A stretch of DNA of 64,000 nt from a bacterium. GTDB taxonomy: Bacteria; UBA10199; 2-02-FULL-50-16; JAJFLM01. The translations under genes were made by a program, and so were the position numbers. Below, in pieces: positions 41,285-57,973 of this stretch. The stretch is from assembly GCA_965216315.1 (NCBI GenBank), contig CBDCFN010000016.1:544001-608000 (forward strand). Reading direction: 5' to 3'. Each line of letters opens with the position of its first letter. Within the stretch, counting starts at the first letter, position 1. The notes below the pieces were generated by a model. It saw nothing but the letters and a program-made list of their open reading frames with translations. It was not told the DNA's origin and made no database searches.

Positions 41285-42001
41285 TTGCTGAGCTTAATAT
41301 TTGGACAAGGCCATCCCCCTGAAAAACGTAAGCGCTACCGGTATACCTTGCCGTCATCAGTGGCGGGTCGGGTTGAGTTGGAGTTGCCACTTGGTGAACG
41401 GCTAACGCTTCGGGTGGTCGATCTCAATGACGAGGCGGTATCCGGTCACTACGAGGGGGAACTCTCGATGCCGGTTGATGATTTGCCGCGGCTGAATGCG
41501 ACGCTGTATCTCGATGACTTGCAGTTTGCGTTTAAGGCGCAAATTATTCGTTATGCCAAAAATTTCCTCGTTTTTAAGTATTGTGATTATGATGAGGAGA
41601 CCTATAAGGAAGTCCTCGAATATTTCCCGGTGATATTAGGTCGGAGCTTGGAGGATCGCGGGGCGCAAAGTAAGACATCGGATTGGATACATGGTTCAAA
41701 TTATACCGATATTTTTATTCAGAACGAAGAAGACCGGAGTGGTGATATCCATAGTTTAACCTATGTTTCAGAGGATAACTATTTGCACTGGAACAGAGAA
41801 ACGGGCATGAAAACGGGGCAAGTTAAGCGAGAGACTTTTGCCGAAGGGTTAGGGTTTTCGAAGCGAGTGCAGAATCCGATTATAAAAGACGCTAGGCCTG
41901 ATGCGGGTCGAATAAAGCGCTTAGCAAGTATTGTTGCGCATTCCTCCTTGCCTGTAGAGACAAAGCAGGCCATTGCTGCAATTCTTGAGATTGGATCATG
42001 A
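41285..42001 (+). CDS. PilZ-like domain protein
   Basis: KRKRYR followed by VVDLN and beta-strands; degenerate DxSxxG. Confidence 0.5.
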   Translation: MLSLIFGQGHPPEKRKRYRYTLPSSVAGRVELELPLGERLTLRVVDLNDEAVSGHYEGELSMPVDDLPRLNATLYLDDLQFAFKAQIIRYAKNFLVFKYCDYDEETYKEVLEYFPVILGRSLEDRGAQSKTSDWIHGSNYTDIFIQNEEDRSGDIHSLTYVSEDNYLHWNRETGMKTGQVKRETFAEGLGFSKRVQNPIIKDARPDAGRIKRLASIVAHSSLPVETKQAIAAILEIGS

Positions 42002-44316
42002 TTAGTAAGCTCATTGATCTACTCGTCATTCATCCGAAGAAATTTCTTTTTACCGCGCTAGGGATTACCTTGTTGTTGGCGTTTTTTGTGCCCGAAATCC
42101 GCATGGTGACGTCAGTCGAGCAGCTCTACCCCTCTAAAAAGGATCCTGACCGCCAGGTATTGGAGGAGACGGAATATCTCTTTGGGGAGGACCCAAGTCT
42201 GATTGTCGCTTTGAAGACGGATGAGGTGTTTAAGAAAGATGTTTTGACTAAAGTGCGTGCCCTTACGCGTGATATAGAAAAAGTTGAACATGTGACTCGG
42301 GTCGATAGTCTGGCTACGGCCAAACGCATCATCAGTGACGAAGAGAGTATGTTGGCAGAGGATTTTTTGGAAAAAATTCCTCAGACAGAGAACGAAATCA
42401 AAGCCCTTCGCAAAGAATACTTTGATAACCCACTGTATCGTAACGCTTACGTTTCGGCCAACGGGCAATGGGCTATCTTTAATGTCGTATTAGAATCTGA
42501 AGATAAGATCGGCAATATCCCGCCAATCGTGAAGAAAATCCGTGCTCTAGCGGTTCAATATCAAGGGCCGGAACGAATATTTGTATCGGGGCGCAGTGAA
42601 CTCAATACCAGTTTCAATGATCTCATGCAAAGCGATCGCCGGCGGCTAATCCCGATTTTGATTGTGGTGATGCTGATCGTCCTTTATTTGAATTTTAGGT
42701 CGTTGGTTGGCTTCGCGCTTCCCTTAGTCAGTGTTTTGATAGGTGTTGTGTGGACATTCGGTGTTATGAGCCTTTTTGGAATCCCAATCTCCATCTTAAC
42801 TTCGACCTTGCCGTCCATTTTGATTGCGATCGGATGTTCTTACGCTATCTATTTTCTCGCGACCTATTTCACGCTCTGGTCTGAAGATCAGGATCCTGTC
42901 GATCATTTAAAGAGGGTGCTGAATAAAACTCTCTTGGCGGTTATCTTCTGCGCTTTTACTACGATTGTCGGGTTTTTTGGGCTCTCTTTAAATGATATCA
43001 ACTTGATCAAGCAGATGGGAGTTGCGGCGGTCATCGGGATATCAAGCCTGTTGGCGCTGACGGCTTTTGTCTTGCCGTGTTTTATCCTTGTAATCAGTGC
43101 ACTCCAGCAGAGCCGTCTGCGTCGGCAGCGGCCCATTCGCATCGCAGACAAGAAGCAGCAGCTTCACACGTTTCCAAGACGTTTCTTGAATCATTCGGGT
43201 AAATTGTTGTGCGGGTGGGCCATCGTCTTTATGATATGCCTGTTCTTTATTCCGCAGCTGAAAATTGAGAACGACCCGAGCACTTTTTTCAAGAAAGATT
43301 CAAGTACCTGGACTAATTTGCAATCATTGGTCAATGAATTGAATATGTACGGTCGATTCAAAATCGTTTTGAGCGCTAAGCAAGAAGACTATTTTAAAAA
43401 CCCCGAGGCATTGAAGCAGATCGAACTGTTGGGAACGAAGATTCAGGCTCTCGAAGAAACAGGCAAGACAATGTCGTTGGCGGATTTTGTGAAAACCATC
43501 AATAAGTCATTCAATGAACATAAACCGGAGTTTGAAGCGATTCCCCCCACCGAGCAGGAAGTCGCCCAGTACTTATTGCTCTATTCACTCTCCGGTGACG
43601 ACGAGAATCTTTATAGGTATGTCACTGAAGACTATAAAACGACTCAAATTGATATTAATGCAGGCGTGACGAGTAGTATCGATAGCTTGACCCTCGCTAA
43701 CAAAATTGAGGCTGACTGCAATGAGGTTTTTGGTGATGATGTCACCTGTCGCGCATCCGGTGCTTCGCTCATACTGGCGAAAAGCGCTCGTTATATTGCT
43801 TTGGGAGTTCTGAAGGGGTTTAGCCTTGCACTGTTTATTATTCTCATTTTGATGTTTGTGCTGTTCCGATCGATTCGGATTGGGCTGATCGCGATGATTC
43901 CAAATGTTGTTCCCACTTCGCTGCTGCTGAGTTTTATGGCGATTGCAGGCATTCCCTTGAACGTGGGTACGTCGATTATTTTGACGATCGCACTCGGTAT
44001 TGCTGTCGATGATACCTTGCATTTTTTCGTTCATTATTATCAGGAACTTAAACAGACGAACCATTTTTTGATTCAGTCCCAGACGGGAATTCGTATTACG
44101 GAAGATCAGAAGTGGGCGGTCGTCACAACCTGGCGGCACCTTTATAAGGCCCTGACGACCACAACGGCGACGATCGTGTGCGGTTTTCTCGTGTTGACTC
44201 TTTCGGATCTGACGCCTTTGGCTCTCTTTGGGTCTTTGACCGCCTTGACGATGTTTTTTGCCTTGCTCACCGATTTAACGCTGACGCCCGCCTTGATTAT
44301 GAAGACGAAGTTCTAG
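41998..44316 (+). CDS. MMPL/RND family lipid transporter (paralogue 2)
   Basis: Same length (772 aa) and colinear with 34143..36461; GIAVDDTLHF. Confidence 0.88.
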   Translation: MISKLIDLLVIHPKKFLFTALGITLLLAFFVPEIRMVTSVEQLYPSKKDPDRQVLEETEYLFGEDPSLIVALKTDEVFKKDVLTKVRALTRDIEKVEHVTRVDSLATAKRIISDEESMLAEDFLEKIPQTENEIKALRKEYFDNPLYRNAYVSANGQWAIFNVVLESEDKIGNIPPIVKKIRALAVQYQGPERIFVSGRSELNTSFNDLMQSDRRRLIPILIVVMLIVLYLNFRSLVGFALPLVSVLIGVVWTFGVMSLFGIPISILTSTLPSILIAIGCSYAIYFLATYFTLWSEDQDPVDHLKRVLNKTLLAVIFCAFTTIVGFFGLSLNDINLIKQMGVAAVIGISSLLALTAFVLPCFILVISALQQSRLRRQRPIRIADKKQQLHTFPRRFLNHSGKLLCGWAIVFMICLFFIPQLKIENDPSTFFKKDSSTWTNLQSLVNELNMYGRFKIVLSAKQEDYFKNPEALKQIELLGTKIQALEETGKTMSLADFVKTINKSFNEHKPEFEAIPPTEQEVAQYLLLYSLSGDDENLYRYVTEDYKTTQIDINAGVTSSIDSLTLANKIEADCNEVFGDDVTCRASGASLILAKSARYIALGVLKGFSLALFIILILMFVLFRSIRIGLIAMIPNVVPTSLLLSFMAIAGIPLNVGTSIILTIALGIAVDDTLHFFVHYYQELKQTNHFLIQSQTGIRITEDQKWAVVTTWRHLYKALTTTTATIVCGFLVLTLSDLTPLALFGSLTALTMFFALLTDLTLTPALIMKTKF

Positions 44317-44466
44317 GAGTCAATATCTTGACTGTTAGGGCTCTCAATATGATAAAAAATAGTGTAGACTAAGCGGAGCGAGTGTCATTTATTCATATAA
44401 AACAACAGCTTACTTTTTTTGGCTACTGGTACGTTTATTGCACTAGCTAGAATGGTGGATTCATTT

Positions 44467-45906
44467 ATGTCGGGCAGAAACATCAGCATTGGGGGGATTT
44501 TGCTTGCCGCCCTGTTGGTAGGGGCGCTTTCAGGGCCGGTGCAGGCGCAGCCGAGTGCCGCGGATGAGCCGACGGAAGCGCCAGCTCCACCAACGATGCC
44601 CCCGCCAACGACACCCCCACTGCCGCCCCTGCCGGACGATCCCGCCGATAGTTCGACGCCACCGCCTCCCGGCGAAACAGGGTCTGAGTTGCCCAGCGAC
44701 CCTCTCGGGGAGCCTGAGGTCGGTGAAGTGGAAGAGCCGGCCGTAAAGTATAAAGTGGGTTATATTTGCAGCCCGGCGGCAGGCAATGTTGAGAATCAAA
44801 GTAACCTTTGTGTCGTGGATTCCGATGGAAAAAATCCACGTGTCATGGTGGTGGGCGGCATCCTTGCCGCGCCGGTTTGGTCTTTAGATGGCCAGTTCAT
44901 CTATTTTTCTTATGATAAGGGTCCCGCCAATCTAGAAGCGTTACCGGGGATGCCTCCGGTCAGCATTCCCCATAATTTTGATGTTCATTATCTGCGTTGG
45001 AGTGATGGAGCGCATCTGCAATTAACGGATAGTCCTGCGCCCGAATTCTTGATTCAAGATCTTCCTGCCGGAAATGAATTGCTGTTGACACGTCGTCGTT
45101 TTGTAAACGAAACCTCACAGCTGGGAGTTGAGAAAAAGAAGCTGGAGATCAAATTAAAGCTAATAGATTTTCCGTGTGTTTTTTCCATGACTGAACAGAA
45201 TTGCGAGAGTTTAGGCGCAACGGCAGGGGAGTTAGCGAACTCTGATTGCCCACCCTTGGCGCTCCCATTGCCTCTAGGCTTGTCTCCATTTGGACGCTGG
45301 GCGACCCAATCGGCAATGTTGTGTGATGAAGGGGTAAGGAAGGAAGGCTTTTTTCTCGTTGATACTGAAAGTGATAAGAGGATTCCGGTTTTGCATAAGG
45401 ACCTTAGTGCATGTCGCGTTATAGATTTTCACGGCGGCATTGCCGTCAATGACGATGGATCGCCCATGGTGATTCCTTTTAATACGAAATCTCTTAAAAT
45501 AGATAGCTGTGTCTTCTACTTGTCCCCGGAAAGGCAACGCATGGCTTACATCAACGTTAACGGTCAAGTTGGTGTGATTGATTTGAATAGCCGTCAACTC
45601 CAGTACATGACAGTCGAGGCGCCGGTTCAAGGCATTGATGCGCTGGCGTGGTCACCCGGTGGCAATGATTTGTTGGCCTTCAAGCGGGAAGGCGGGGGGC
45701 CGATGTATAGAATTTCGGCGCTAATCGTCGACGATGTCAGTTTTCTGGGTTACGGGAGTCAACCTGCCTGGAGTCCGATTCCGCTCGCGACGTATACCTC
45801 CGAAGCGACGGTTGCAGCGGCCGAAACTATTGAGCTCGACAATGTTCCCGCCGAGAAGACGCAAATCATCGCGCAGCCTGCCGCTGGATGTACCCTCATC
45901 CGCTAA
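44467..45906 (+). CDS. Exported TolB/PD40-like beta-propeller protein with Pro-rich N-terminus
   Basis: Signal peptide ending VQA; PPPTTPPLPPLP; PVWSLDG, LAWSPGG, PAWSP; C-terminus AAGCTLIR. Track start is 44419. Confidence 0.7.
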   Translation: MSGRNISIGGILLAALLVGALSGPVQAQPSAADEPTEAPAPPTMPPPTTPPLPPLPDDPADSSTPPPPGETGSELPSDPLGEPEVGEVEEPAVKYKVGYICSPAAGNVENQSNLCVVDSDGKNPRVMVVGGILAAPVWSLDGQFIYFSYDKGPANLEALPGMPPVSIPHNFDVHYLRWSDGAHLQLTDSPAPEFLIQDLPAGNELLLTRRRFVNETSQLGVEKKKLEIKLKLIDFPCVFSMTEQNCESLGATAGELANSDCPPLALPLPLGLSPFGRWATQSAMLCDEGVRKEGFFLVDTESDKRIPVLHKDLSACRVIDFHGGIAVNDDGSPMVIPFNTKSLKIDSCVFYLSPERQRMAYINVNGQVGVIDLNSRQLQYMTVEAPVQGIDALAWSPGGNDLLAFKREGGGPMYRISALIVDDVSFLGYGSQPAWSPIPLATYTSEATVAAAETIELDNVPAEKTQIIAQPAAGCTLIR

Positions 45907-45981
45907 GCAACTGAAATCTTTCCCTTATTCATGTTTTCACAAGTGGCGAGCTGTGATATTGTGTAGCGACCAAACAGCGTT

Positions 45982-47715
45982 GTGAAATCACTTATTATCA
46001 TCATTATGTTGCTCGGCTTGGCGGTAGGTGCCAGTGCCGCTGAGGAAGAAACGGTCTCGGAGGAGATCCCCCCGAATTGGAAGAAGTGGGAGACTCCCGA
46101 CGGGGCGGTTTATTATCAGCGGCCCGATGGGACAACGACGTGGGAAAATCCACTCAATCCGCCCGAGCTAGGTCCGGGAGTTGATGACAAGCAGGGTCCC
46201 GTTCCAAGCCAAACTGTCAGTGATGACGGGGCGCCCGAACCAGTTGAGGCAGAGCCGGCTCCTGTTGAGGCAACAACCGTTGGTGCGCGGCAGCCGAGAA
46301 AGAGCGGGGCGTTTATGGAGGGAAGCGCCGAAGCGGCTCCTGAGGTATCGGTGTTACCGGATGGTTGGAAAGAGTGGCGCACCGAAGACGGCAAACGCTA
46401 CTACGAGAAGCCGGATGGAACGACGACATGGGACCGCCCCAAAATTGTCTGGGAAAAGCCCTCGGCAGACGGAACACTGACGCTCACGCGCTATCATACT
46501 GAAAACATTAATTGGGCAAATGATTTTCGCTTTGGGGGGTCGCTAGAATATCGATTTTCCGGGTTTTTTAAAAATGATGTGAATAGTGATGAGCGTCTCT
46601 GGAATGATGTCATTTTTCAATTGTTTACCGATGTTCGCTGGAATGATCAGGTTCGCACTTATGGCAAGATGGAGTTGACAGGATATCTCCCGCAATCGGA
46701 TCCGCGTATTCGTATTATTCCGGAAGAAGCTTTTCTGGATCTTTATTTAGGTCCCGTTGATATTCGGGCGGGTTATCAGATTTATTCCTGGGGTGTGGCT
46801 GATCTGTATAATCCGACGGATAAGCTGAACCCGCGTGATTATATAGACATTCTCAATTACGAAAAAGAAGGTATCTTAAGTTTGAAGGTCGGTTATTCTT
46901 TTAGCAATTGGACGCTCGAAGGCATTTGGATTCCTTTGCCGGAGGAGAGTTATCTCCCTCAACCCGGCTGGCGCTTTTTTGAAATGCCGGGCGCCTCCCA
47001 GGGACTGCCGCCGGCAATCGTGTCGGACCTAATAGCCTTGCGGCCCGGTAAAAGTATTCGAAATCCGCAGTTTGCAGCCCGCTTGCGAGGGACTGCGGGG
47101 CGTTTTGATCTGGGTTTCAGCTATTTCTATGGCTTGGCGACAGTGCCGCAGCGTGAGGTGAGTGTAGGCACATTCAACCCTGTCGATAATACGGTGACGG
47201 TAACAGTGACCGAAGTATTTCCACGCGAGCATACCGTTGGGGCGAACATGGCAACCACGATCAAAAAACTCGGACTCCATTTGGAAACGGCTGCTGTTTT
47301 TCCTAAGGATACCGGAAGAGACATCGGCTCCGCTGATCAATTTCGCTTTAACTATGTTGTCGGCGGGAATTATACGTGGAGCGATGTCATTTCAGACCAT
47401 GATATAAGATTTTTCCTCGATTTTACTCACGAGATTCATCGTGATGAAAAAAGCACTAACCTTTCCCGAATTTTTCAGTTATCATTGCTCTCACGTCTGG
47501 AATATATCGTCTCAGACGACCTTAAAATCACTCTATCAGGGGCCTATAATTTCGATGATCGCGATTATATTATTCGGCCTCGTATCGAGTGGGGTTTTTA
47601 TGAGGGCTTTACATTGACCGCCGGTGCCGATTTCCTGGGTGGGCCGAGCGGAAGCTTTTTTGACCTGTTTGAAGAGGATGACCGGGGCTATGCCTGGCTA
47701 AAGTACGAATTTTAG
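45982..47715 (+). CDS. Outer-membrane beta-barrel (DUF1302-like) with two N-terminal WW domains
   Basis: Signal peptide; two P..W......G..YY...DGTTTW..P units; GYQIYSWG..D..NPTD.LNP.D; terminal KYEF. Confidence 0.8.
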   Translation: MKSLIIIIMLLGLAVGASAAEEETVSEEIPPNWKKWETPDGAVYYQRPDGTTTWENPLNPPELGPGVDDKQGPVPSQTVSDDGAPEPVEAEPAPVEATTVGARQPRKSGAFMEGSAEAAPEVSVLPDGWKEWRTEDGKRYYEKPDGTTTWDRPKIVWEKPSADGTLTLTRYHTENINWANDFRFGGSLEYRFSGFFKNDVNSDERLWNDVIFQLFTDVRWNDQVRTYGKMELTGYLPQSDPRIRIIPEEAFLDLYLGPVDIRAGYQIYSWGVADLYNPTDKLNPRDYIDILNYEKEGILSLKVGYSFSNWTLEGIWIPLPEESYLPQPGWRFFEMPGASQGLPPAIVSDLIALRPGKSIRNPQFAARLRGTAGRFDLGFSYFYGLATVPQREVSVGTFNPVDNTVTVTVTEVFPREHTVGANMATTIKKLGLHLETAAVFPKDTGRDIGSADQFRFNYVVGGNYTWSDVISDHDIRFFLDFTHEIHRDEKSTNLSRIFQLSLLSRLEYIVSDDLKITLSGAYNFDDRDYIIRPRIEWGFYEGFTLTAGADFLGGPSGSFFDLFEEDDRGYAWLKYEF

Positions 47716-47721
47716 AGGATC

Positions 47722-47831
47722 AATGAAAATGACCACCTGCATCGTTGCCTCAAAATTCAGTCATTGCGACGTACTTAAAGTACGACTCATTCCTGAATTT
47801 ATCAGCGCCTTGCATCTGGAACATTTTCATT
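47722..47831. repeat. ~110-nt imperfect palindrome, copy 2
   Basis: Shares CCAxCTGCxTCGTTG...CGACGTAC...GTACG...GCCTTGCAxCTGG with 1144-1254; stems aatgaaaatg/cattttcatt and aaattcag/ctgaattt. Confidence 0.7.
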
Positions 47832-47864
47832 AATCCTTATACTGTGAATTGCAAGGAGAGTAGA

Positions 47865-48695
47865 ATGTATCGATATGTAGGTTATACCGGGATTATCACG
47901 TTCACGTTTCTGCTAATAGCGAGTAGCGGGCATGCACAAACGGCGAGCGAAGCGCCGGCGGGAACCGCTCAACCGACGGCTCCGGCTCAACCGCAGTTAA
48001 CGGCTCGCCAGATGATGCAGAAATTTGTCGATCATTATGATAATCGTGATGAGGCGACTAAGATGCAAATGGTGCTGATCTCCAAGACAGGTTCACAACG
48101 GAATCGACGCATGAGTATCAAACGTCGCACTGATGAAAAAGATCTTGAAAAGATAATGATCCGTTTCCATGAACCCAATGATATCCGCGGGACCTCTTTG
48201 CTGACTTGGGAACAGGCGGCTGGTAAGGATGATTTGCAATGGATTTATCTGCCGGCACTGAAAAAGACCAAGCAGATTTCAGGTGGCGCCAAAAAAGATG
48301 ATTTCGTCGGCAGTGACTTTACCTATGAGGATCTGCGCCCCGAAAAATTGGATGACTTTAATTACACGTTAGTCGGAGCTCAGGATGGCCGCGTCATTAT
48401 TGATGCAACGCCACGTATCAGTGATTCCGGTTATAGCCGCCGGCGCGTCTGGCTGCGGCAGGACAATTATTTTGCAGTGGGTATCAAGTATTACGACCAT
48501 AAAGGCCAATTCCTCAAAAAAATGAGCGTTTCGGGTTTGGTGAATGTCGCCGGTGGGCGCGTACGTGCCAATAAAGTGAGGATGGAAAACGTTCAAAATG
48601 GCCATGCGACTGAATTGAATGTCCATAGCCGTCAGTTAGACACGGGCTTGAAAGAAGCCGCGTTTACCAAGCGGGAATTGGAAAAGGGCGTCTAG
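47865..48695 (+). CDS. LolA-like periplasmic carrier (outer-membrane lipoprotein-sorting protein)
   Basis: AAGGAG RBS; F.EP.DIRGT.LL, QWIYLPALKK, FVGSDFTYEDL, FT.R.L. Confidence 0.85.
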   Translation: MYRYVGYTGIITFTFLLIASSGHAQTASEAPAGTAQPTAPAQPQLTARQMMQKFVDHYDNRDEATKMQMVLISKTGSQRNRRMSIKRRTDEKDLEKIMIRFHEPNDIRGTSLLTWEQAAGKDDLQWIYLPALKKTKQISGGAKKDDFVGSDFTYEDLRPEKLDDFNYTLVGAQDGRVIIDATPRISDSGYSRRRVWLRQDNYFAVGIKYYDHKGQFLKKMSVSGLVNVAGGRVRANKVRMENVQNGHATELNVHSRQLDTGLKEAAFTKRELEKGV

Positions 48696-48696
48696 T

Positions 48697-49866
48697 TCAA
48701 TCAGCGGTAAAGTAATTCTGACGACCGCGCGAGTAAAGCACTTCAGAGATCATATATTTCTGTATCTCGGTGGTTCCTTCAATAATAGAAAGGATTTTTG
48801 AATCGTTGACTAGCTTGGCGATTGGATACTCGAGGGAAATACCGGCTCCCCCCATAATTTGAGCTGCTTTTAGAGTGACTTCTTCGGCTGTTGATGTTGC
48901 ATAGGCTTTAGCCAGTGATGCCTCGTAGCGATAATCCTGGCCGAGAGAGGCTTTCCATGCCGCCCGCCAAGCTGCAAGTCTTGATGCCTCTGTCGCCATT
49001 TGCATTTGCGCAATGTATTGGCGAATGACCGGATGATCCCCAATGGCTTTTCCAGCCGAGTAACGAGTTCTTGAATAATCAATGCATTCATCAATGGCAC
49101 GTTGTTGTATGCCCGTAGCTATGGCAGCCGTTCCGGTCCTGCCACGCGAGAGAGAACGCATGGCTACCTGATAGCCGTTGCCCTCTTTGTCTAGAAGGTT
49201 TTCACGCGGGATGAAGACATCTTCAAAAGTGAGACCGGATGTATCGGCGGCTTTAAGGCCAAGCTTTTTTTCAGGGCGCGCTTTGATGACTCCATCCAGG
49301 TTGCCGGGAACGATAAAGGCTGATAGCTCAGAAATTTGTTGAGACCCCTTAGGGTAGGCGAAAACAATATAGATGCCGGCACGATTTGCATTGGATATCC
49401 ACGCTTTCTGACCATTGATGACAAAGCCATCATTCTTTGTTTCGTAATGGGTTTTTAAGCCGCCAAGGTCGGAGCCGGTTTGGGGCTCGGTTAAGGCAAA
49501 CGAAATCAGCATTCGCTCTTCACATAATAAGGTAAGCCACTTCTTTTTTTGTTCTGCCGTGCCGAAATAGTCAATAGGTGCGGAAGCCAGATTATTAGTC
49601 AGTATGGCGAGTGCTATACCTGCACAAGCATGTCCCAGGATTTCTGCAATAAGGACGGACTCAGCAGGTCCCATGTTACCTCCACCATACTCATCTGAAA
49701 TTCCCAAGTTAACGATACCTAACTCTTGAGCTTTATCGATAATATCTTCAGGAAAAGTATGGCTTTCATCATATTCTGCTGCTTTGGGTAGGATTTCGTT
49801 TGAGGCAAAATCTTTTGCCATATCCACGATCAAGCGCTGGTCTTCAGTCAAAGAAAAATCAATCAT
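48697..49866 (-). CDS. Acyl-CoA dehydrogenase family protein
   Basis: FALTEPQTGSD, INGQKAWISN, KLG, GGAG, IIEGTTEIQ; AGGAG 7 nt before ATG 49866. Confidence 0.9.
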   Translation of the reverse strand: MIDFSLTEDQRLIVDMAKDFASNEILPKAAEYDESHTFPEDIIDKAQELGIVNLGISDEYGGGNMGPAESVLIAEILGHACAGIALAILTNNLASAPIDYFGTAEQKKKWLTLLCEERMLISFALTEPQTGSDLGGLKTHYETKNDGFVINGQKAWISNANRAGIYIVFAYPKGSQQISELSAFIVPGNLDGVIKARPEKKLGLKAADTSGLTFEDVFIPRENLLDKEGNGYQVAMRSLSRGRTGTAAIATGIQQRAIDECIDYSRTRYSAGKAIGDHPVIRQYIAQMQMATEASRLAAWRAAWKASLGQDYRYEASLAKAYATSTAEEVTLKAAQIMGGAGISLEYPIAKLVNDSKILSIIEGTTEIQKYMISEVLYSRGRQNYFTAD

Positions 49867-52663
49867 AAACATGCTCCTTTTCGCCATCACTGCTGTGTTG
49901 TTTTAGGCGGCGCAGGGACATTCCCGGTGCAAGTCTCGGGGTGGCTCCCAGTCTAATAATTTCCTGCTCGATCAGAGATGTGATGAACTCATGCTTGGGT
50001 TTTCCATTCGGTGAATCGATATTTCTTGGCGATATAGGGCTCCCAAATATGATTTTAACTTTGGACGGACGGGGAATGTACTGGTCGCGATTGAGAACAT
50101 TAAAGCTGCCTTTAATATAGATAGGAATAATCGGAGAACCGGTTGCTTCGGCCAGAATGCCAACGCCATTCTTGAAACGATTTAGTTTTCCGTCCATTGA
50201 CGGTGTTCCTTCAGGATGAATGAATAAGATATTTCCTGAATCCAGGACTTTTTTACCTGCCTGGAGTGCGGGGAGAAAATTCCCTTCGCGATCAATTGGA
50301 ATCATCTGGGCCAACCAGGCAAACAGGCCACGGTCAAAGCGCTGCAGATGCTCTTTTTTTCCGATAACATAAAAAAACTTTCGAAGTTGTGGAGCCAGCT
50401 TGCACAGAACAAAAAGGGGGTCCATATAGCTTTCATGGTTTGAGGCTAAGATGAAAGGTGGTTTCGCCGGAAGGTGCTCTATACCATCGCATTCCAGTCG
50501 AAACATTATGCGACTGATAAGTGACAGAGTTGAAATGAACCGCTGACGAAAATGCCCGGTAGAATTGTTATCAAGATGGACCCGCTGCTTTATTTCGCGA
50601 TCGATTACGGGAGAGATGGATTGGTCTAGTACCTCGTTCCAACATGTGGAATTGTTATTATCCATGCCTCTCCTGTAGTCCCCTTTTGATAGATCTATTT
50701 CGTTTTGAGAGCAGAATTCATTGATAGCGATGATGCAATCCCGAATCGAACGCATTGAGTAGACAATATCTTTAGATACCGGCTGTCCGATGATTTCTTC
50801 GATATTCACCGCTAATTCCGCCATCGACAATGAGTCAAAACCGAGGTCCATAAATAGATGTGACTCCAGCTCAAATTGGATGGGTCCCCCTTTTACGCGA
50901 GCCACAGCTTCCTTAAGGAGTTTGCCTGCACCCGACGAGAGCAGCTTTTCGCCGGATATATTAATTTCGACATTCGTTTTCTGACCGTTTCGATCGATGA
51001 CATTCTGTCTCAGCTCAAATTTCTTGATTTTTCGAGTCGTGGTCCGGGGTAGGGACTGATACTGAATTTCATATCGGTTGATTCGGCACCAGCCGGGCAG
51101 CTGTTCAGATCTGTCGATAATTGTGTTCTTGATAATCATGTCAACGTCGTTCAAGCAGTTCGTCTTGAAGTAGCTCATATTGGGGACAATGATGGCGTAT
51201 ATTTCTTCCGCTTTTTCGCGAGTACTTTTCGGGACTCCGAAGACGGCGATCTCTTCAATGCAGTCGGATTCGAGATAAAATTCTTCTATTTCGTCGGGGA
51301 AAACATTTTTTCCGGAAGGAAGTACGATGACGTCTTTAGATCTTCCGCAGATACTGAGATAGTTCTCTTTATCTAGCGACCCAATATCTCCTGTCAGAAA
51401 ATAGCCATCGCTCGTAAAAGTCGAGCCGTTATTATTTAGTTGATAGTAGCCATTAAAAACAGGCGGACCCTTAACGGCAATTTCACCCGCGCCATTATCA
51501 TCGGGTGAAACGATTTTAACGGATATGCCGTTAAGTCTGCGTCCGACTGTGCCGGGACGAGCATGATGAGGAAAATTACAGAAAATCACCGGTGCTGTTT
51601 CAGTCAGGCCGTAGCCCTCGAATATGGGGAGTCCTAAAGTGTTGAAAGTACGGATCACGTCTTCGTCGAGCGCGGCAGCACCCGAAATGATACGACGAAT
51701 ATTCCCGCCCAGCGCATCATGGATTTTTTTAAAGAGGCATTTTTTTATTCCGTAGAGATGAGCACCGTTGTCGCTGATATATCGAGACGATTTCAGGGTA
51801 TGAAATATGAGCTGGGCCGAGTTTGGAGCAAAATTAATCTGCTCGACTATGCCTCTGTAGAGCTGATTGAGGATAGCTGGGACAAATATAAGCGTTGTAA
51901 GTCGGTTCTTTTGAATGCATTCTAATAGGTCGGCTTTATTCAGGCTGCTGAGGATGAAGATATCGGCACCAACTTCCAGCGAATTCAGTAGGCAAGCGGA
52001 AAACGAGTAGGCATGATTCAGAGGGAGTAGCATCAGTGTTTTATCATCTTCAGATAATCTCATATCGTGGGCAATCGAAAGCTGAGAGAGAAAATTAGTA
52101 TGCTTTAATAATACTCCCTTTGGGTTGGATGTCGTGCCCGAAGTATAAATGAGTGAAGCGCTGTTTTTAGGGGAGGATCGGATGACTTTGAAATCAGAGT
52201 CATGTCTTTCCTCGATCCAGGAAAAAGGAATGCATTTACGCAAGTAATTGATGTCGGCGTCGAGAACGACGTATTTGCTGACTTTTTCGTCAAGCTCAGG
52301 AGAGCGGATGTTGGGTAAGATATTCCGCTCAGTGAATAAAAGCCTGGCTTTAGAATTGCCGATGATATTATTGATTTCGTGTGCTGATAAGTGGGGATCA
52401 ATTGTCACAGCGCAGGCGCCGACATTGATAATGCCTATATATATTGCGATCCATTCAATTCGATTGGTGGACATGAGAGCGACATTTTCGCCCCTTCTGA
52501 CATTATGATTCGCTAAGAAACGGCCTACTTTAAGGCTCAATTCATATACTTCCCGAAAAGAACTCTCGGTGTGCTGAGCCGCGCCCTGATGGTGAATAGA
52601 GGATAAATTATCCACTGCTTTGGCTTGGAAAAAATCGGTGAGAGATTGGTAACTGGCTGCCAT
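49859..52663 (-). CDS. Fusion of long-chain acyl-AMP/CoA ligase, ACP and PlsC-type acyltransferase (Aas-like)
   Basis: YTSGTTSNPKG, GYGLTE, TGD; ACP LGFDSL; acyltransferase NHESYMD, HPEG. Confidence 0.88.
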   Translation of the reverse strand: MAASYQSLTDFFQAKAVDNLSSIHHQGAAQHTESSFREVYELSLKVGRFLANHNVRRGENVALMSTNRIEWIAIYIGIINVGACAVTIDPHLSAHEINNIIGNSKARLLFTERNILPNIRSPELDEKVSKYVVLDADINYLRKCIPFSWIEERHDSDFKVIRSSPKNSASLIYTSGTTSNPKGVLLKHTNFLSQLSIAHDMRLSEDDKTLMLLPLNHAYSFSACLLNSLEVGADIFILSSLNKADLLECIQKNRLTTLIFVPAILNQLYRGIVEQINFAPNSAQLIFHTLKSSRYISDNGAHLYGIKKCLFKKIHDALGGNIRRIISGAAALDEDVIRTFNTLGLPIFEGYGLTETAPVIFCNFPHHARPGTVGRRLNGISVKIVSPDDNGAGEIAVKGPPVFNGYYQLNNNGSTFTSDGYFLTGDIGSLDKENYLSICGRSKDVIVLPSGKNVFPDEIEEFYLESDCIEEIAVFGVPKSTREKAEEIYAIIVPNMSYFKTNCLNDVDMIIKNTIIDRSEQLPGWCRINRYEIQYQSLPRTTTRKIKKFELRQNVIDRNGQKTNVEINISGEKLLSSGAGKLLKEAVARVKGGPIQFELESHLFMDLGFDSLSMAELAVNIEEIIGQPVSKDIVYSMRSIRDCIIAINEFCSQNEIDLSKGDYRRGMDNNNSTCWNEVLDQSISPVIDREIKQRVHLDNNSTGHFRQRFISTLSLISRIMFRLECDGIEHLPAKPPFILASNHESYMDPLFVLCKLAPQLRKFFYVIGKKEHLQRFDRGLFAWLAQMIPIDREGNFLPALQAGKKVLDSGNILFIHPEGTPSMDGKLNRFKNGVGILAEATGSPIIPIYIKGSFNVLNRDQYIPRPSKVKIIFGSPISPRNIDSPNGKPKHEFITSLIEQEIIRLGATPRLAPGMSLRRLKQHSSDGEKEHVYD

Positions 52664-52764
52664 TTAACCTACAGGTGATTCAATTTCAGCAAAAATAATA
52701 TCTATGCTCATGATAACAGAAGCTCATAATTGCATGTTAGATTATTTGTATGCACCGGATTAAA

Positions 52765-52786
52765 ACTGTTTACTCGTGTAAACAGT
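52765..52786. promoter_or_regulatory. Perfect inverted repeat (operator/UAS candidate) between divergent lipid operons
   Basis: ACTGTTTAC-TCGT-GTAAACAGT; half-site ACTGTTTAC again at 52923. Confidence 0.55.
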
Positions 52787-52943
52787 GTCATTATCTCTAC
52801 ATAGAGTGGGTACATGATGACCTCAAGACTGAGATGTAAATTGTATCCAACCGAATTGCGTTAACAGTTTTTGAGCAAACAATATTTTATTAACCAGCTG
52901 AAAAATAATGAAGATGCCTTTAACTGTTTACATGAATTGCGCT

Positions 52944-52960
52944 TAGGCATGTAATTTGCA
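52944..52960 (+). promoter_or_regulatory. Sigma54 (-24/-12) promoter of the NRPS operon
   Basis: TAGGCATGTAATTTGCA (GG-N10-GC) about 60 nt before GTG 53021. Confidence 0.6.
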
Positions 52961-53020
52961 GTTCAGCCTCTCAGATTATTTTTTGTTTATGATAATCCAG
53001 GTTAAGAGGAGACGCAGATA

Positions 53021-56000
53021 GTGGTTCTAAAGAAGTGGGAAGAAAGTTTATGCACGCTCCTCAAAAAGAAAGCACAAGAGCAGCAGGACGAAATAGCATT
53101 CACCTATATAAAGAATGACGGATCAGGCGCTGAAGAGATGACATACGCGGAGCTTGATGAAGGGGCCCGCGCAATCGCAGCCTATCTTGCCCCGATGAAC
53201 GTTATCGGGAAGCCGATCGTCACCCTTCAAATTAATAGTTTAGAGGCTATTTACGCCGTATTTGGGATTCTTTATGCGGGTGGGATTGCCGTGCCGGCTT
53301 ATCCGCCGGACCCGGCGCGAATCAGCCATACGCTGCCTCAATTGCTGTCAACTATCAGCGACAGCCAAGCAAAACTCATCCTGACCTCAACGTTCCTTCT
53401 GGAAGCAGCCGGCCCATTGCTCGAGGCGATGCCTGAGCTGAAAGCACTCCAATGGGTCGCAGTCGATGAGATTGTCGGGCAGACCCACAGCGATAACGAG
53501 CTTCCTCTCACCCAGCCGGAGACGGTGGCATTTATTCATTATACGTCGGGCTCGACGGGAGAGCCTAAGGGCGTTGTGACGACGCATAAGAATCAGATAC
53601 GGGCGACCCGAGGAATGGTGGAAGTCAATGACTACGATAAAGATACTGTCGTCCTCTCTTGGTTGCCGCTGCAGCATAGTGCCGGGTTTATGGCAAGCGT
53701 ATTGACTCCTATTATGTCGGGTGGAAGGGGTGTCATCATGTCGCCGTTGATGGCGCTTGAGGATCCCAAAAAATGGTTGCAAGCAATCTCGCAATACAAG
53801 GCCAATGTTAGCGGTGGCCCGAACTTCATTTTTGATCTTTGTGTGAAAAAAGTAAGTGATCAGGACATAGACCAGTTGGATTTACGTTCATGGCATCACG
53901 CCATCGTGGCAACAGAAGTCGTGCGTTCCGAGACACTCCGTGCCTTTGCTTCAAAGTTTGCATCATGTGGCTTCGAGGAGGGTTCATTCGACCCTAGCTA
54001 TGGACTAACGGAAATGCCGTTGGTGACGCTGAATGGCATGGCTGATATCGAGACCCGCATTGATTCTGGAATTGTCAGTTGTGGAAGACCGGCCCCTGGA
54101 GTTGAGCTGGAGATAGTGAACCCGGAAACGATGACGATCTGTAAGGCCGGAGAAGTAGGTGAAATATGGATCGGCGGTCCATCACTGGCTCAAGGGTATT
54201 GGAAAAAGCCAGATGAAACGGACCTGCTGTTTAAATCGTTTACAAAGGATACACTGAGAGGCCCATTTTTTAAGACAGGTGATTTAGGCTATCTGTCGGA
54301 AGACGAGCTATTTATTACGGGTCGGATCAAAGAGTTGATCATCATCCGAGGAAAAAATCACTATCCAATCGATATCGAACGGAGTCTTCAAGAGAACATA
54401 CCGGAATGTGGCGCTGGTTGTATTGCAGCATTCGGAATGGAAGCAAGTGGAGCTGAACAGCTCGTGATTGTTCAAGAGATATCCTCGAGTATGTCTAAAA
54501 AAGATCAGCTTGAATTGATTCAATCGATTAGAGAGGTCACGGGCCGTGAACACCAAGTAACTCCCAATGAAATCGGTTTGGTGGCATTGGGGAGTATTCC
54601 GCGAACGAGAAATGGCAAGGTTCAGAGAACTCTATGTAAGCAGCAATATATTTCAAACGAATTGGAACTTATCCATGATTCATCCGATGGGAGTGAGTTT
54701 GAGCAACGGCAGCCGAATACGTTTGTAGCCCCTCAAAGCGCGTGGGAAAAAGTGTTAGAGGAAATGTGGCGCACATCGCTCAGTCCGGATCAGGATTCAA
54801 TAGGAATACATGATAATTTCTTTCAGCTGGGTGGCGATAGCTTGAGCGCCATATCGATTGTGGGAGACTTATCGCGACTAACAGGCCGTATTCTTGATGA
54901 GAATTTAGTCCATCTTCACCCGACAATTCAAGACCTGGCGGCCCATTTGGAAACGTTGATCGGTGAAGTGCCAGCGGATGATGATGTAGCCGCGAGAGAT
55001 GAAACGTACAGGCAGCATATTAGATCGGACCAGTCAGAGTTTCCGCTCGAACCGCTTCAACAGTCTTTCTACATCAATAATATGTTGGGAGATGTTCTCT
55101 GCTATGTCTGCGGAGACCTGCGCCTTAAAAGTGAACTTAAACCCGAGGAGTTCCAACGTGTCATTCGTGAGGCGATGGAAATCATGCATTACCGTCATCC
55201 GACGCTCCGCTTGGCCTACCGCTTGGATGACGATGGGCCACGTCAGTACATTAAGGAGGACTATCCCGAGTTTACCGTTAACTGTATAGACCTCTCTAGT
55301 TACTCTTTAAGCGATGTTGAAAGAGGCATTAAAATCGAGTTTGAACGGTTGAACTGTTATCAATTCGATACGGAAGCGGGTGAAAACTTCGTTGCAACAC
55401 TTCTTTATACGGGGAGTGAAAATTACCGCCTGATATTCAGTATAAACCATCTCGGCATTGATGGTTTCAGCTTACCTTTCTTTTTCGACGACTTTCTGGG
55501 TGAGGTGTTTCCTTCTGTTCTTGCACGAGAACCCGTGGAAAGAATTCCACAGACCAGTATGAGCTTTAAGGATTATTTAGAAATCAAATTTGCACTTAAA
55601 GACAATGATAAAAGGCAATATGATATTGATTTCTGGTTGCAAAAATTGGAGCGTCTCGAGGCATTTCCTCCTCTGCCTGAAAATCACGAAAAAACAGCTG
55701 ATATATCTTTTGGCATGCACTGGCTGGATGTTGACCGGTTAATAGTGGAGAAACTGAGTCATATTGCTCGGATGCATGAGACAACATTGTTTTCCCTTCT
55801 GTTTGCAACGTTCTTCAAGTTAGTGGCCCAGTGGAGTTTGGTTGGAAATATTTCGGTTAATACGCCGATCGTCAATCGGCGGCCCTATGCGAAGGATGTG
55901 AATAATATATTGGGTTGTTTTACGGACATCCTGCCTGTGCACGTTGAAGAGGCTCTGAGCAAGCCGGTCATTGAGCTAGCAAAAGATATTCAAGGACAGT

Positions 56001-57973
56001 TGGCTGAAATACTCTCACATAGTTCCGTTTCCGCTGTCGAAATCGCTCGCATGCTCATGCAACGAGACAAGCAGAAGATGACCGCCTTAAGTCCAATTAT
56101 TTTCACTTCGGCACTTTTACCCGATTATGGGCTGAATGGTAAAGAAACCTTCGACGAAGTTGAGCTCATGCAAGTAAGAACAGGGGCACCAGCTACCTGG
56201 ATGGATGTCATTGTGGGGAGCCAACAAGAAGGAATATTTTTCTCTTGGAATTACAATCGGCGTCGATTCACTCAAGAATGGGTTGAGATTTTTTCTGATC
56301 AATATAGCGTGGCTTTGCAAGAGATTGCTACTAATCCTCAGACGTGCCGACCCATTAAATCATTAAAGACAGAACGTGACGATGAAGCCTATGCGCGTCT
56401 TAATCAAACAGAACGTTCTTATGGGAATCCAAAAACTCTCCATGAGAGGTTTGAGGTTCAGGTTGAGAAAAATCCCGATGCAACTGCAATCAAGCATAAT
56501 GACCATGACATGACATATGCTCAATTGAATATGCGCGCGAATCAGTATGCGCATACGTTACTCGAAAAGGGAGCTACCTGCGGTGATTTTGTCGCGATTT
56601 TGTCAGATCGGTCCAGTGAGTTTGTGGCTGGCATTCTTGGAATACTCAAAATAGGAGCCGCCTATGTCCCTATTGATCCAGGTTATCCTGATAAACGGCA
56701 GCAGTATATTCTGAGGGATTCTGAGGCCAAGGTTTTATTGATTGAGTCGAAGTATCATAAATTAAGTGATGAGTGGGTTGCGGACTGCCGCCAACTTAAT
56801 CATGTTATTAGCTTGGACGATATATCTCTGTCTGGTTCAACTCATGATCCTCAAATTAATGTCGATTCAAAAGTAATTGCCTACATGATCTACACTTCGG
56901 GATCTACGGGCGATCCTAAGGGTGTGATGATTTCTCATTGTGCAGTCGATAATCGTCTTCAATGGATGCAAGAGATATTTGAGATTAGTGGACACGACAC
57001 GATCGCTCAAAAAACTTCTCAGAGTTTCGATGTCTCAGTATGGGAATTATTTTGGCCCTTGCAGCAGGGGAGTCGAATGCTGATTATTGATTCGGAAGCG
57101 ATCATGGACCCTTTCCTTTTTCAATCAATAATCAATAAGGGGGAAGTCTCTGTCATGCATTTTGTGCCCTCGATGTTCATGGTATTTCTAGAGGTAGCCG
57201 AAAGCATGAGTGAGATAGAGCGCGCTATGCCCTGCTTGAGATGGGTCGTTGCCAGTGGGGAAGCACTGCCGGCGGAGGCTGTTCGCCGCTGGCAGCGGCT
57301 CTATCCACAAATTCCAGTGGCTAATTTATATGGCCCTACTGAAGCCGCGATTGATGTGACGTATCAGATTGTTAGCGAGGCACTTCCTGATGATGCGACA
57401 CAAATTCCTATTGGTCGACCCGTCGCCAACACTCAGATTCTGATTCTGGATAAGGAAGGGCATGTGCAGCCAGCAGAAGTGCCAGGCGAGATCTGTCTTG
57501 GGGGGGTGCAGTTGGCGGAGGGTTATTGGCATAAGCCAGAGCTGAGTGCTGAGAAGTTTATCGATAACCCTGATGAGTCGACGCGCAAGAGTATTCCTCG
57601 TTTGTACCGCACAGGTGATTTGGGCGTATTAGATGGTGGAGGGGTCATTCAATATTTAGGTCGACTCGATCATCAGGTGAAAGTACGAGGCTTTCGTATT
57701 GAGCTCGGCGAGATAGAAGCGGCATTACTGCGCCATCCTGCTGTGAGCGAAGCTGCTGTCGTCGCTCAAGACGGAAAAAATGGTCAGAAACGACTGGTTG
57801 CCTTTGTGAAACCATCTAATGGATCGATTTCTTCCGAGGAATTGAAATCATTTATTGCTCAGTCGTTACCAGAATATATGGTCCCGTCATTTATCAATTC
57901 AATTGAAGCAATGCCACATAATTCAAATGGAAAAATTGATCGGAAAAATTTAATCAGCCTTGACTGTCGCTAG
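53021..57973 (+). CDS. NRPS: FAAL-ACP-condensation (Cy-like)-adenylation (Ser predicted), no terminal carrier
   Basis: FAAL YTSGSTGEPKG, SWLP, IIRGKNHYP; ACP LGGDSL; C/Cy NHLGIDG, PIIFTS; A domain FDVSVWE, HFVPSM, ASGEAL, NLYGPTEAAIDV, NGKIDR. Confidence 0.9.
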   Translation: MVLKKWEESLCTLLKKKAQEQQDEIAFTYIKNDGSGAEEMTYAELDEGARAIAAYLAPMNVIGKPIVTLQINSLEAIYAVFGILYAGGIAVPAYPPDPARISHTLPQLLSTISDSQAKLILTSTFLLEAAGPLLEAMPELKALQWVAVDEIVGQTHSDNELPLTQPETVAFIHYTSGSTGEPKGVVTTHKNQIRATRGMVEVNDYDKDTVVLSWLPLQHSAGFMASVLTPIMSGGRGVIMSPLMALEDPKKWLQAISQYKANVSGGPNFIFDLCVKKVSDQDIDQLDLRSWHHAIVATEVVRSETLRAFASKFASCGFEEGSFDPSYGLTEMPLVTLNGMADIETRIDSGIVSCGRPAPGVELEIVNPETMTICKAGEVGEIWIGGPSLAQGYWKKPDETDLLFKSFTKDTLRGPFFKTGDLGYLSEDELFITGRIKELIIIRGKNHYPIDIERSLQENIPECGAGCIAAFGMEASGAEQLVIVQEISSSMSKKDQLELIQSIREVTGREHQVTPNEIGLVALGSIPRTRNGKVQRTLCKQQYISNELELIHDSSDGSEFEQRQPNTFVAPQSAWEKVLEEMWRTSLSPDQDSIGIHDNFFQLGGDSLSAISIVGDLSRLTGRILDENLVHLHPTIQDLAAHLETLIGEVPADDDVAARDETYRQHIRSDQSEFPLEPLQQSFYINNMLGDVLCYVCGDLRLKSELKPEEFQRVIREAMEIMHYRHPTLRLAYRLDDDGPRQYIKEDYPEFTVNCIDLSSYSLSDVERGIKIEFERLNCYQFDTEAGENFVATLLYTGSENYRLIFSINHLGIDGFSLPFFFDDFLGEVFPSVLAREPVERIPQTSMSFKDYLEIKFALKDNDKRQYDIDFWLQKLERLEAFPPLPENHEKTADISFGMHWLDVDRLIVEKLSHIARMHETTLFSLLFATFFKLVAQWSLVGNISVNTPIVNRRPYAKDVNNILGCFTDILPVHVEEALSKPVIELAKDIQGQLAEILSHSSVSAVEIARMLMQRDKQKMTALSPIIFTSALLPDYGLNGKETFDEVELMQVRTGAPATWMDVIVGSQQEGIFFSWNYNRRRFTQEWVEIFSDQYSVALQEIATNPQTCRPIKSLKTERDDEAYARLNQTERSYGNPKTLHERFEVQVEKNPDATAIKHNDHDMTYAQLNMRANQYAHTLLEKGATCGDFVAILSDRSSEFVAGILGILKIGAAYVPIDPGYPDKRQQYILRDSEAKVLLIESKYHKLSDEWVADCRQLNHVISLDDISLSGSTHDPQINVDSKVIAYMIYTSGSTGDPKGVMISHCAVDNRLQWMQEIFEISGHDTIAQKTSQSFDVSVWELFWPLQQGSRMLIIDSEAIMDPFLFQSIINKGEVSVMHFVPSMFMVFLEVAESMSEIERAMPCLRWVVASGEALPAEAVRRWQRLYPQIPVANLYGPTEAAIDVTYQIVSEALPDDATQIPIGRPVANTQILILDKEGHVQPAEVPGEICLGGVQLAEGYWHKPELSAEKFIDNPDESTRKSIPRLYRTGDLGVLDGGGVIQYLGRLDHQVKVRGFRIELGEIEAALLRHPAVSEAAVVAQDGKNGQKRLVAFVKPSNGSISSEELKSFIAQSLPEYMVPSFINSIEAMPHNSNGKIDRKNLISLDCR

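Follow-up and report, generated by a model that had tools for sequence, protein, structure and literature searches.

The 64,000-nucleotide window analysed here (positions 544,001 to 608,000 of contig CBDCFN010000016.1, GenBank assembly GCA_965216315.1, from a bacterium of the GTDB lineage UBA10199) contains an export operon in which an outer-membrane barrel protein carries two WW units behind its signal peptide. The WW domain is a small module that binds proline; it is known chiefly from eukaryotes, where it is a classic signalling adaptor. By their signature, their similarity to solved WW domains and their predicted fold, and not by the Pfam threshold, these barrel units are genuine WW domains. 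The gene adjoining the barrel gene upstream encodes an exported protein with a very proline-rich N-terminal tail that includes two overlapping PPLP motifs, as a preliminary description of this DNA, made from the sequence without database searches, had noted. On balance we think it probable that the WW pair is a periplasmic docking module for an extended proline-containing segment of an envelope partner. The PPLPPLP/PPPP tail of the neighbour is put forward, tentatively, as the leading candidate ligand in the window's genome.

Two WW domains on an outer-membrane barrel protein

The preliminary description had placed two WW-like units after the signal peptide of the barrel protein, and both strings lie exactly at the positions it gave (Table 1). 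Each shows the WW signature, with W33-W54-P57 and a central Y44Y45 in the first unit and W129-W150-P153 and a central Y140Y141 in the second. A search of the PDB with the N-terminal 173 aa of the barrel protein returned 101 sequences at E<=10; 57 of the 60 matches listed are WW-domain proteins, the others being two designed 'Cake' propellers and one mitoribosomal protein. The best of these single-sequence matches was NEDD4L (2e-8), and YAP1 was matched at 9.1e-7. We then used a four-unit WW profile, composed of the two units from the window barrel and two from an orthologue, which matched 85 PDB sequences at E<=0.01. Its match to YAP1 reached 2.9e-15, with two domains of 31.7 and 27.3 bits aligned over their full length (positions 3-37), and the WW matches to the profile take in the first Trp and the final Pro. 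FE65-family WW domains (2ysc, 2ho2, 2e45), which bear on a group II (PPLP-binding) specificity, match unit 1, and PPxY-type domains do so at similar scores.

The predicted structure agrees with a WW identity. With a four-row alignment, AlphaFold2 (AF2) modelled barrel residues 20-180 as two separate three-stranded sheets (strands 15-18, 24-27 and 33-34, and strands 111-114, 120-123 and 129-130). The predicted local distance difference test (pLDDT) values of these sheets are 77-87 (WW1 77-87, WW2 83-85), and those of the linkers are below 50. The Foldseek matches listed are WW or tandem-WW structures, with single-domain fits of 0.8-2.0 A over 31-36 columns. The best fits are 7lp2_A (0.8 A over 31 columns, 45% identity) and 4n7h_A and 7lp3_A (1.1 A over 32-33 columns).

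The Pfam WW family, which the preliminary description had proposed as a check, speaks against this identification (PF00397, gathering cut-off 26.9 bits). The barrel in full scored 11.3 bits, its two units on their own reached 17.5 and 19.3 bits, and a six-frame Pfam WW search of the window's genome returned nothing at E<=0.01. The cut-off was passed only by the orthologue in G001, and there only with both units summed (27.8 bits). Such scores would also suit a reading in which the units are stray PQQ-type beta-propeller blade fragments or a chance motif, as would the presence of designed 'Cake' and 'Scone' propellers and a PQQ-repeat protein among the PDB matches, which share a DG.xY...PDGT..W stretch with the units. 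We rejected this reading, to which we give hardly any credence. The 'Cake' matches cover profile positions 16-32 at ~5-7 bits per repeat and become significant only through the summing of 8-9 repeats, unlike the WW matches (positions 4-37). Moreover, there are two units only, they stand a 67-aa disordered linker apart, and each is modelled as a three-stranded sheet of its own that superposes on WW structures.

The remainder of the protein is an outer-membrane barrel, as the preliminary description had it. The PF06980 (DUF1302) match is above its cut-off (Table 1) and spans barrel residues 253-436 only (profile positions 156-360 of 541), and in the alignment the barrel body is conserved through the C-terminal Phe in all homologues. 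The public gene call for the barrel, P0001, starts eight codons later than the GTG used here and gives a protein of 569 aa. Because it follows a signal peptide and precedes an outer-membrane barrel, the WW extension should hang in the periplasm.

Conservation and distribution of the WW units

A word-based protein search with the barrel returned the barrel itself, four close homologues (P0002-P0005) and one distant protein. Both WW units are kept in three of these five other proteins (P0002-P0004). Across these three and the window barrel, both units share an invariant W, G, YY, PDG, T, TW and P, and an extra Trp stands three residues past the first Trp in 7/8 units. The linkers are unalignable, and the one between the two WW units is much shorter in the orthologues than in the window barrel. 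P0005 has no WW units, but its contig measures 2.7 kb and the gene call may be cut short. With the WW region alone as query, the word-based search returned nothing but that query.

The distribution of WW-bearing barrels is very narrow, being confined to two genomes of one family and three metagenomic proteins, which limits their general importance. Among the 11442 open reading frames (ORFs) of the window's genome, the four-unit profile matched the barrel alone (76 and 79 bits; next E 1.8), and it matched two of the 93 genomes of the phylum, both of the same family. Pfam WW matched one of the 93 (the orthologue with the summed score given above) and none of 14 control genomes. A genome-collection scan for orthologous loci yielded only L014, which is labelled as a Deltaproteobacteria metagenome-assembled genome, and one distant Spirochaetota barrel. 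When metagenomes were scanned with barrel alignment A2, none of the 227 pattern matches was a relative.

An exhaustive library search with the WW profile returned 1746 proteins at E<=0.001, with the barrel family represented by a score of 116.9 bits. The best 150 of these 1746 matches are for the most part long proteins in which as many as 27 WW units occur, and they look eukaryotic by their length, repeat number and N-termini alone. Among P0008-P0057, the best library matches have 8-27 WW units each, and P0013, a protein of 2422 aa, has 27 matched stretches. A metagenome scan for WW units gave seven loci, three of them with full units in eukaryote- or virus-like multi-domain proteins and three with partial matches only. 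At L032 (519-1241), on a bacterial-looking contig with a GC content of 0.69, an ORF that has no clear signal peptide carries at its end one WW unit of the subtype found on the barrel, YYERPDGTTTWDRP; this unit scores 21.5 bits with Pfam WW. This single unit on a bacterial-looking contig indicates that the subtype exists in other bacteria in a different architecture.

A ~93%-identical strain from run X6, the only run with a variant, gives a view of variation within the extension. Its WW1 differs by I29V, D40E and one synonymous change, and its inter-WW linker by three non-synonymous and six synonymous changes; 18 nt of this linker (46252-46269, EPAPVE) are missing in frame, a loss of six codons. 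These differences, read from contigs of low depth, lend weak support to the view that the domain is constrained and the linker free to vary. The X6 contigs do not cover the proline tail; other runs are near-identical and may be the source of the stretch. Short high-GC contigs of X3 that matched the proline tail were set aside, as they are unlike the tail beyond 37 bases.

The GC content at third codon positions is 0.59 in the WW extension (46039-46503), 0.66-0.69 in the WW units and 0.47 in the barrel body, all small samples. In the upstream gene it is 0.65 in the proline tail (44548-44742) as against 0.50 in the remainder, again from small samples. The difference would be in keeping with the WW extension and the proline tail having been acquired later.

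The proline-rich neighbour as a candidate ligand

The upstream gene product had been described as an exported beta-propeller, and this holds in part. A Sec-type signal peptide is predicted, without a lipobox cysteine in the translation, and the protein is 479-495 aa long depending on the start (ATG at 44467 or TTG at 44419). Its family matches are below threshold: PD40 reached 18.9 bits (cut-off 20.9), and TIGR02800 (TolB) 24.4 bits (cut-off 343.15), in a match confined to residues 123-168. From a two-row alignment, AF2 produced a poor model (mean pLDDT 44.7). Matches to propeller structures are limited to model residues 261-442, with Z scores of 7-9.1 (TolB 8.2), a range that can reflect a common arrangement. 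Used as query in a word-based search, the protein matched only itself. At its C-terminus (45880-45906; 5880-5906 in L014) a Gly-Cys pair is conserved 4-5 residues before the end (AAGCTLIR / GGCGRVL; G474 and C475 are invariant), and this pair might be a sorting or modification signal.

The proline-rich string that the preliminary description placed at 44581-44673 is real and ends, as described, with TPPPPG at 44673. Its start had been set 18 nt too early, with PAPPTM taken in; the first residue of the string PPPTTPPLPPLP is number 61 when the TTG at 44419 is taken as the start, and lies at nt 44599. The best 30-residue window of the tail (16/30 Pro) ranks first among 2516 crude genes of the genome. 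PPLP occurs in 12 of these 2516 genes, and two copies occur in the propeller-like gene only. The chance that the single most proline-rich gene flanks the sole WW gene is ~8e-4, and the chance that any of the 27 genes with at least 10 Pro in 30 residues does so is ~0.02.

We propose that in this lineage the barrel would have gained a WW pair on a flexible N-terminal extension, and that the cassette would hold an unrelated propeller-like protein that is specific to the lineage and has a disordered, acidic tail with proline in it. The WW pair would act as a low-affinity docking module on a long leash beneath the barrel, where it would catch an extended proline-containing segment of another envelope protein and hold that segment under the barrel. 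A more far-reaching form of this proposal would see here a complete eukaryote-type pair at work in the periplasm, tandem WW plus PPLP/polyproline, whose WW domains were captured by horizontal transfer. The 67-aa linker and the 65-aa tail would together make a two-sided flexible tether that connects the outer-membrane barrel of a lipid exporter with its inner-membrane RND pump and the propeller. Bacteria would thereby have their first functional canonical WW-ligand system. We consider this full form rather unlikely. Horizontal capture of the WW pair is suggested by the eukaryotic-looking giant multi-WW proteins among the best library matches, together with the deviating third-position GC.

The preliminary description had gone on to propose that a WW-polyproline tether docks the propeller on the barrel. 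Such binding is not supported so far, and several observations weigh against it. WW-bearing barrels and their neighbours could be compared at the two loci with readable context, the window and L014, as the preliminary description had suggested; the neighbour is clearly proline-rich at one of them and only mildly proline-containing at the other. L014 has the same five genes as the window operon, its barrel keeps both WW units, and its propeller-like protein, which has no Pfam match, is 36% identical to that of the window. The L014 tail is acidic, with 14 Pro in 65 residues (22/65 in the window), and lacks PPLP, PPxY, PPPP and any Pro-Pro pair, so that the motif is not conserved and only the general character of the tail is. 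In favour of a link, the propeller-like gene and the WW extension are alike in their narrow distribution: of 41 genomes, G000 and G001 have the propeller-like protein, with a weak match in G024 (E 1.6e-4), while 11 have barrel relatives, and only the barrels of G000 and G001 bear WW units. Since both WW-bearing genomes belong to one family, the co-occurrence of WW barrel and propeller counts as a single evolutionary event. Also in favour of a link, the nine WW-less barrel loci of relatives have LolA-like and MMPL or FtsX/MacB genes and no propeller. Against it, Pro/Ala-rich tails are carried among these WW-less relatives by the barrels of L021 (5592-7112) and L026 (6009-7424), for example APPPEVAPAPVSTPAPQTPAPVSP, and by the LolA-like protein of L026. 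Exported proteins of relatives without WW units have such tails, which shows that the tails need no WW partner, and proline-rich leaders appear to be a habit of this protein group. The binding class of the WW units is also unreadable from their sequence: the loop after YY is one residue shorter than in eukaryotic WW domains, and it aligns so that the Leu and His of what we take to be the PPxY-type pocket are lost. A complex prediction of barrel aa 20-160 (four-row alignment) with tail aa 44-100 scored 0.03 against a mark of 0.32, in a run whose controls were not folded, and counts neither in favour of binding nor against it.

The main alternative, which we hold to be about as probable as the tail being the ligand, is that the WW domains are real and the tail is merely a flexible or stiff spacer, as in TonB/TolA, with the WW pair binding another envelope protein or nothing specific. 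The adjacency of the two genes would then be a by-product of both encoding exported proteins with low-complexity linkers. The absence of PPLP from the orthologous tail and the Pro/Ala-rich tails of the WW-less cassettes would fit such a spacer, and proline-rich stretches are not rare in this genome: 26 other genes have at least 10 Pro in a 30-residue window, PPLP occurs in the 12 genes mentioned above, and PPxY occurs in 35. Against a spacer stand the first rank of the tail window directly beside the sole WW gene, with its low chance probability, and the fact that both genomes with the WW extension also have the propeller-like gene.

The barrel itself also has same-chain ligands on offer, a further point against the tail as the partner, with proline runs right after the WW units in three of four orthologues. 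The WW units might thus bind the barrel's own inter-WW or WW2-barrel linker, within or between chains, which would give self-association or auto-inhibition as in some eukaryotic tandem-WW proteins. PPPP in P0002, PPPRP in P0003 and PPTPTPTP and PPPG...PPPP in P0004 would serve such binding, as would NPLNPPELGPG and the proline-rich 67-aa linker of the window barrel. We judge self-binding improbable: the linkers are unalignable, of variable length and without a conserved motif, and the near-identical strain lacks six linker codons. Still less probable, in our estimation, is that the WW fold binds a non-proline ligand such as cell-wall material and anchors the barrel to the wall. The idea draws on a module of the pneumococcal hydrolase LytB, named WW, which contributes to cell wall/peptidoglycan binding according to the available portion of the source (PMC10434722). 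The window units, however, align from end to end with canonical proline-binding WW domains and retain YY and the second Trp, and the PDB matches listed include no sequence link to LytB. Docking of a proline-containing segment is our preferred account of the WW pair.

The export operon and comparison with known systems

Five closely spaced genes occupy positions 41285-48695 of the + strand in the ORF list of the window (Table 1). The first gene is kept at the same position in L014 (1241-1972, 243 aa), where it likewise has no Pfam match. Its N-terminus (RKRYRY..., later D-E-A-V-S-G) resembles what we take to be the PilZ c-di-GMP receptor pattern, RxxxR / DxSxxG; the second of these motifs is not kept in the L014 copy. 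The RND (resistance-nodulation-division) transporter encoded next matches TIGR00921 (HAE3) with 224.4 bits over residues 19-768, below the subfamily cut-off of 351.9. The last gene, for a LolA-like/DUF1329-like protein, likely starts at the ATG at 47865, judging from the signal peptide that this start yields.

Table 1. Positions of the operon genes and of the WW and proline-rich elements in the window
Feature	Position	Strand	Basis and remarks
Gene 1, 238 aa, opens the operon	41285..42001	+	no Pfam/NCBIfam match above threshold; end overlaps RND start
RND transporter, MMPL/HAE3 type, inner membrane, 772 aa	41998..44316	+	Pfam MMPL 138.7 bits, E 2.8e-40
Exported all-beta protein, in part propeller-like, 479 aa from ATG	44467..45906	+	gene call P0007; TTG at 44419 also open
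Predicted Sec signal peptide of propeller-like protein, MSGRNISIGGILLAALLVGALSGPVQA	44467..44547	+	translation; putative cleavage site
N-terminal tail, acidic, Pro-rich, probably disordered, 65 aa	44548..44742	+	22 Pro, 14 Asp+Glu, 0 Lys+Arg; pLDDT <40
PPLPPLP, two overlapping PPLP, aa 66-72 from TTG	44614..44634	+	sequence
PPPP run, aa 81-84 from TTG	44659..44670	+	sequence
Outer-membrane barrel protein with N-terminal tandem-WW extension, 577 aa from GTG	45982..47715	+	ORF list, Pfam
Predicted Sec signal peptide of barrel, MKSLIIIIMLLGLAVGASA	45982..46038	+	translation; putative cleavage after ASA
WW domain 1, aa 29-57, IPPNWKKWETPDGAVYYQRPDGTTTWENP	46066..46152	+	Pfam WW alone 17.5 bits; PDB matches, AF2, Foldseek
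Linker between WW1 and WW2, 67 aa, Pro/Ala/Glu-rich, disordered	46153..46353	+	pLDDT <50
WW domain 2, aa 125-153, LPDGWKEWRTEDGKRYYEKPDGTTTWDRP	46354..46440	+	Pfam WW alone 19.3 bits; NEDD4L/YAP1 alignments, AF2, Foldseek
Barrel body, DUF1302-like	46504..47712	+	PF06980 26.8 bits (cut-off 23.2)
Exported LolA-like/DUF1329-like protein	47745..48695	+	PF17131 174 bits; PF07044 48.9 bits (cut-off 23.1)

The preliminary description had spoken of a lipid-export operon. The operon is of the RND/LolA-like export type; the lipid cargo is suggested by the flanking genes. On the flank at 48697-57973 are genes for an acyl-CoA dehydrogenase and a 934-aa AMP-ligase/carrier/acyltransferase fusion, both on the minus strand, and for a 1650-aa protein resembling a nonribosomal peptide synthetase (NRPS), with two AMP-binding domains and one condensation domain. 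These lipid and NRPS-like genes may make the exported compound, and they make lipid or lipopeptide export a fair, if conjectural, label. L014 has an acyltransferase upstream instead of these flanking genes.

The operon is a variant of a known four-part HAE3 RND cassette of the AmeABCD type. In the accessible text of PMC6394551, the cassette of HAE3 RND, DUF1302, DUF1329 and propeller is known as AmeABCD in Castellaniella defragrans, and the accessible text of bioRxiv 10.1101/072470 reports the same four genes as cofit in Shewanella, Kangiella and Pseudomonas. The window operon shares with AmeABCD the HAE3/MMPL RND transporter, the DUF1302 protein and the LolA-like DUF1329 protein, and it differs in gene order. 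It differs further in the WW extension on the barrel and the proline-rich tail on the propeller-like protein, neither of which is mentioned in those portions of the two sources. The AmeABCD propeller is of the Ycf48/BNR type (COG4447), whereas the window protein has only the sub-threshold PD40 and TolB-type matches; Pfam scans of this protein and its orthologue gave no Ycf48/BNR match, though the fold is still possible, COG4447 itself not having been searched.

Docking of proline peptides in the eukaryotic manner may serve the assembly of a bacterial trans-envelope exporter. If the binding is true, it would explain what keeps the periplasmic propeller in place in four-part HAE3 cassettes, which are poorly understood; if there is no binding, the domains still mark a rare and probably transferred module. 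The candidate pair is small, with domains of ~30 residues each and a peptide of ~35 residues, and single Trp changes would serve as controls.

Proline-rich periplasmic spacers are a feature of the envelope-spanning machines TonB and TolA. The window tail resembles them as a long, proline-rich and probably extended segment of an exported protein in an envelope machine. In contrast to them, it is acidic, has no Lys or Arg, is N-terminal on a soluble protein and lies beside a WW-bearing partner.

Our search of the literature for bacterial periplasmic or outer-membrane WW domains, which lay outside subscription journals and InterPro/UniProt annotations, found a mycobacterial WW-like loop and the LytB module only. 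The loop, EL4 of the Mycobacterium tuberculosis protein mannosyltransferase, has its second Trp replaced by Leu and no third strand, and is an incomplete WW in the account given in the available part of a 2025 paper (PMC12331936). On that account, it resembles the window units in being bacterial, extracytoplasmic and of WW type, with a proposed role in the recognition of peptides that contain proline, and it differs from them in that the window units have the full signature and three predicted strands. According to the same part of that paper, eukaryotic proteins are so far the only ones with characterised WW domains, and most of the bacterial annotations examined were spurious (PMC12331936). 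Like the eukaryotic WW domains of YAP1, the NEDD4-family ligases and FE65, the window units have a Trp, 21 residues to the second Trp, x-x-Pro and a central Tyr-Tyr, and as in eukaryotic tandem-WW proteins the two are joined by a flexible linker. Unlike those domains, they follow a signal peptide for export and form one protein with a bacterial outer-membrane barrel. Judged by the literature searched, an exported WW pair on the outer-membrane barrel of an AmeABCD-type cassette is a new context for WW domains.

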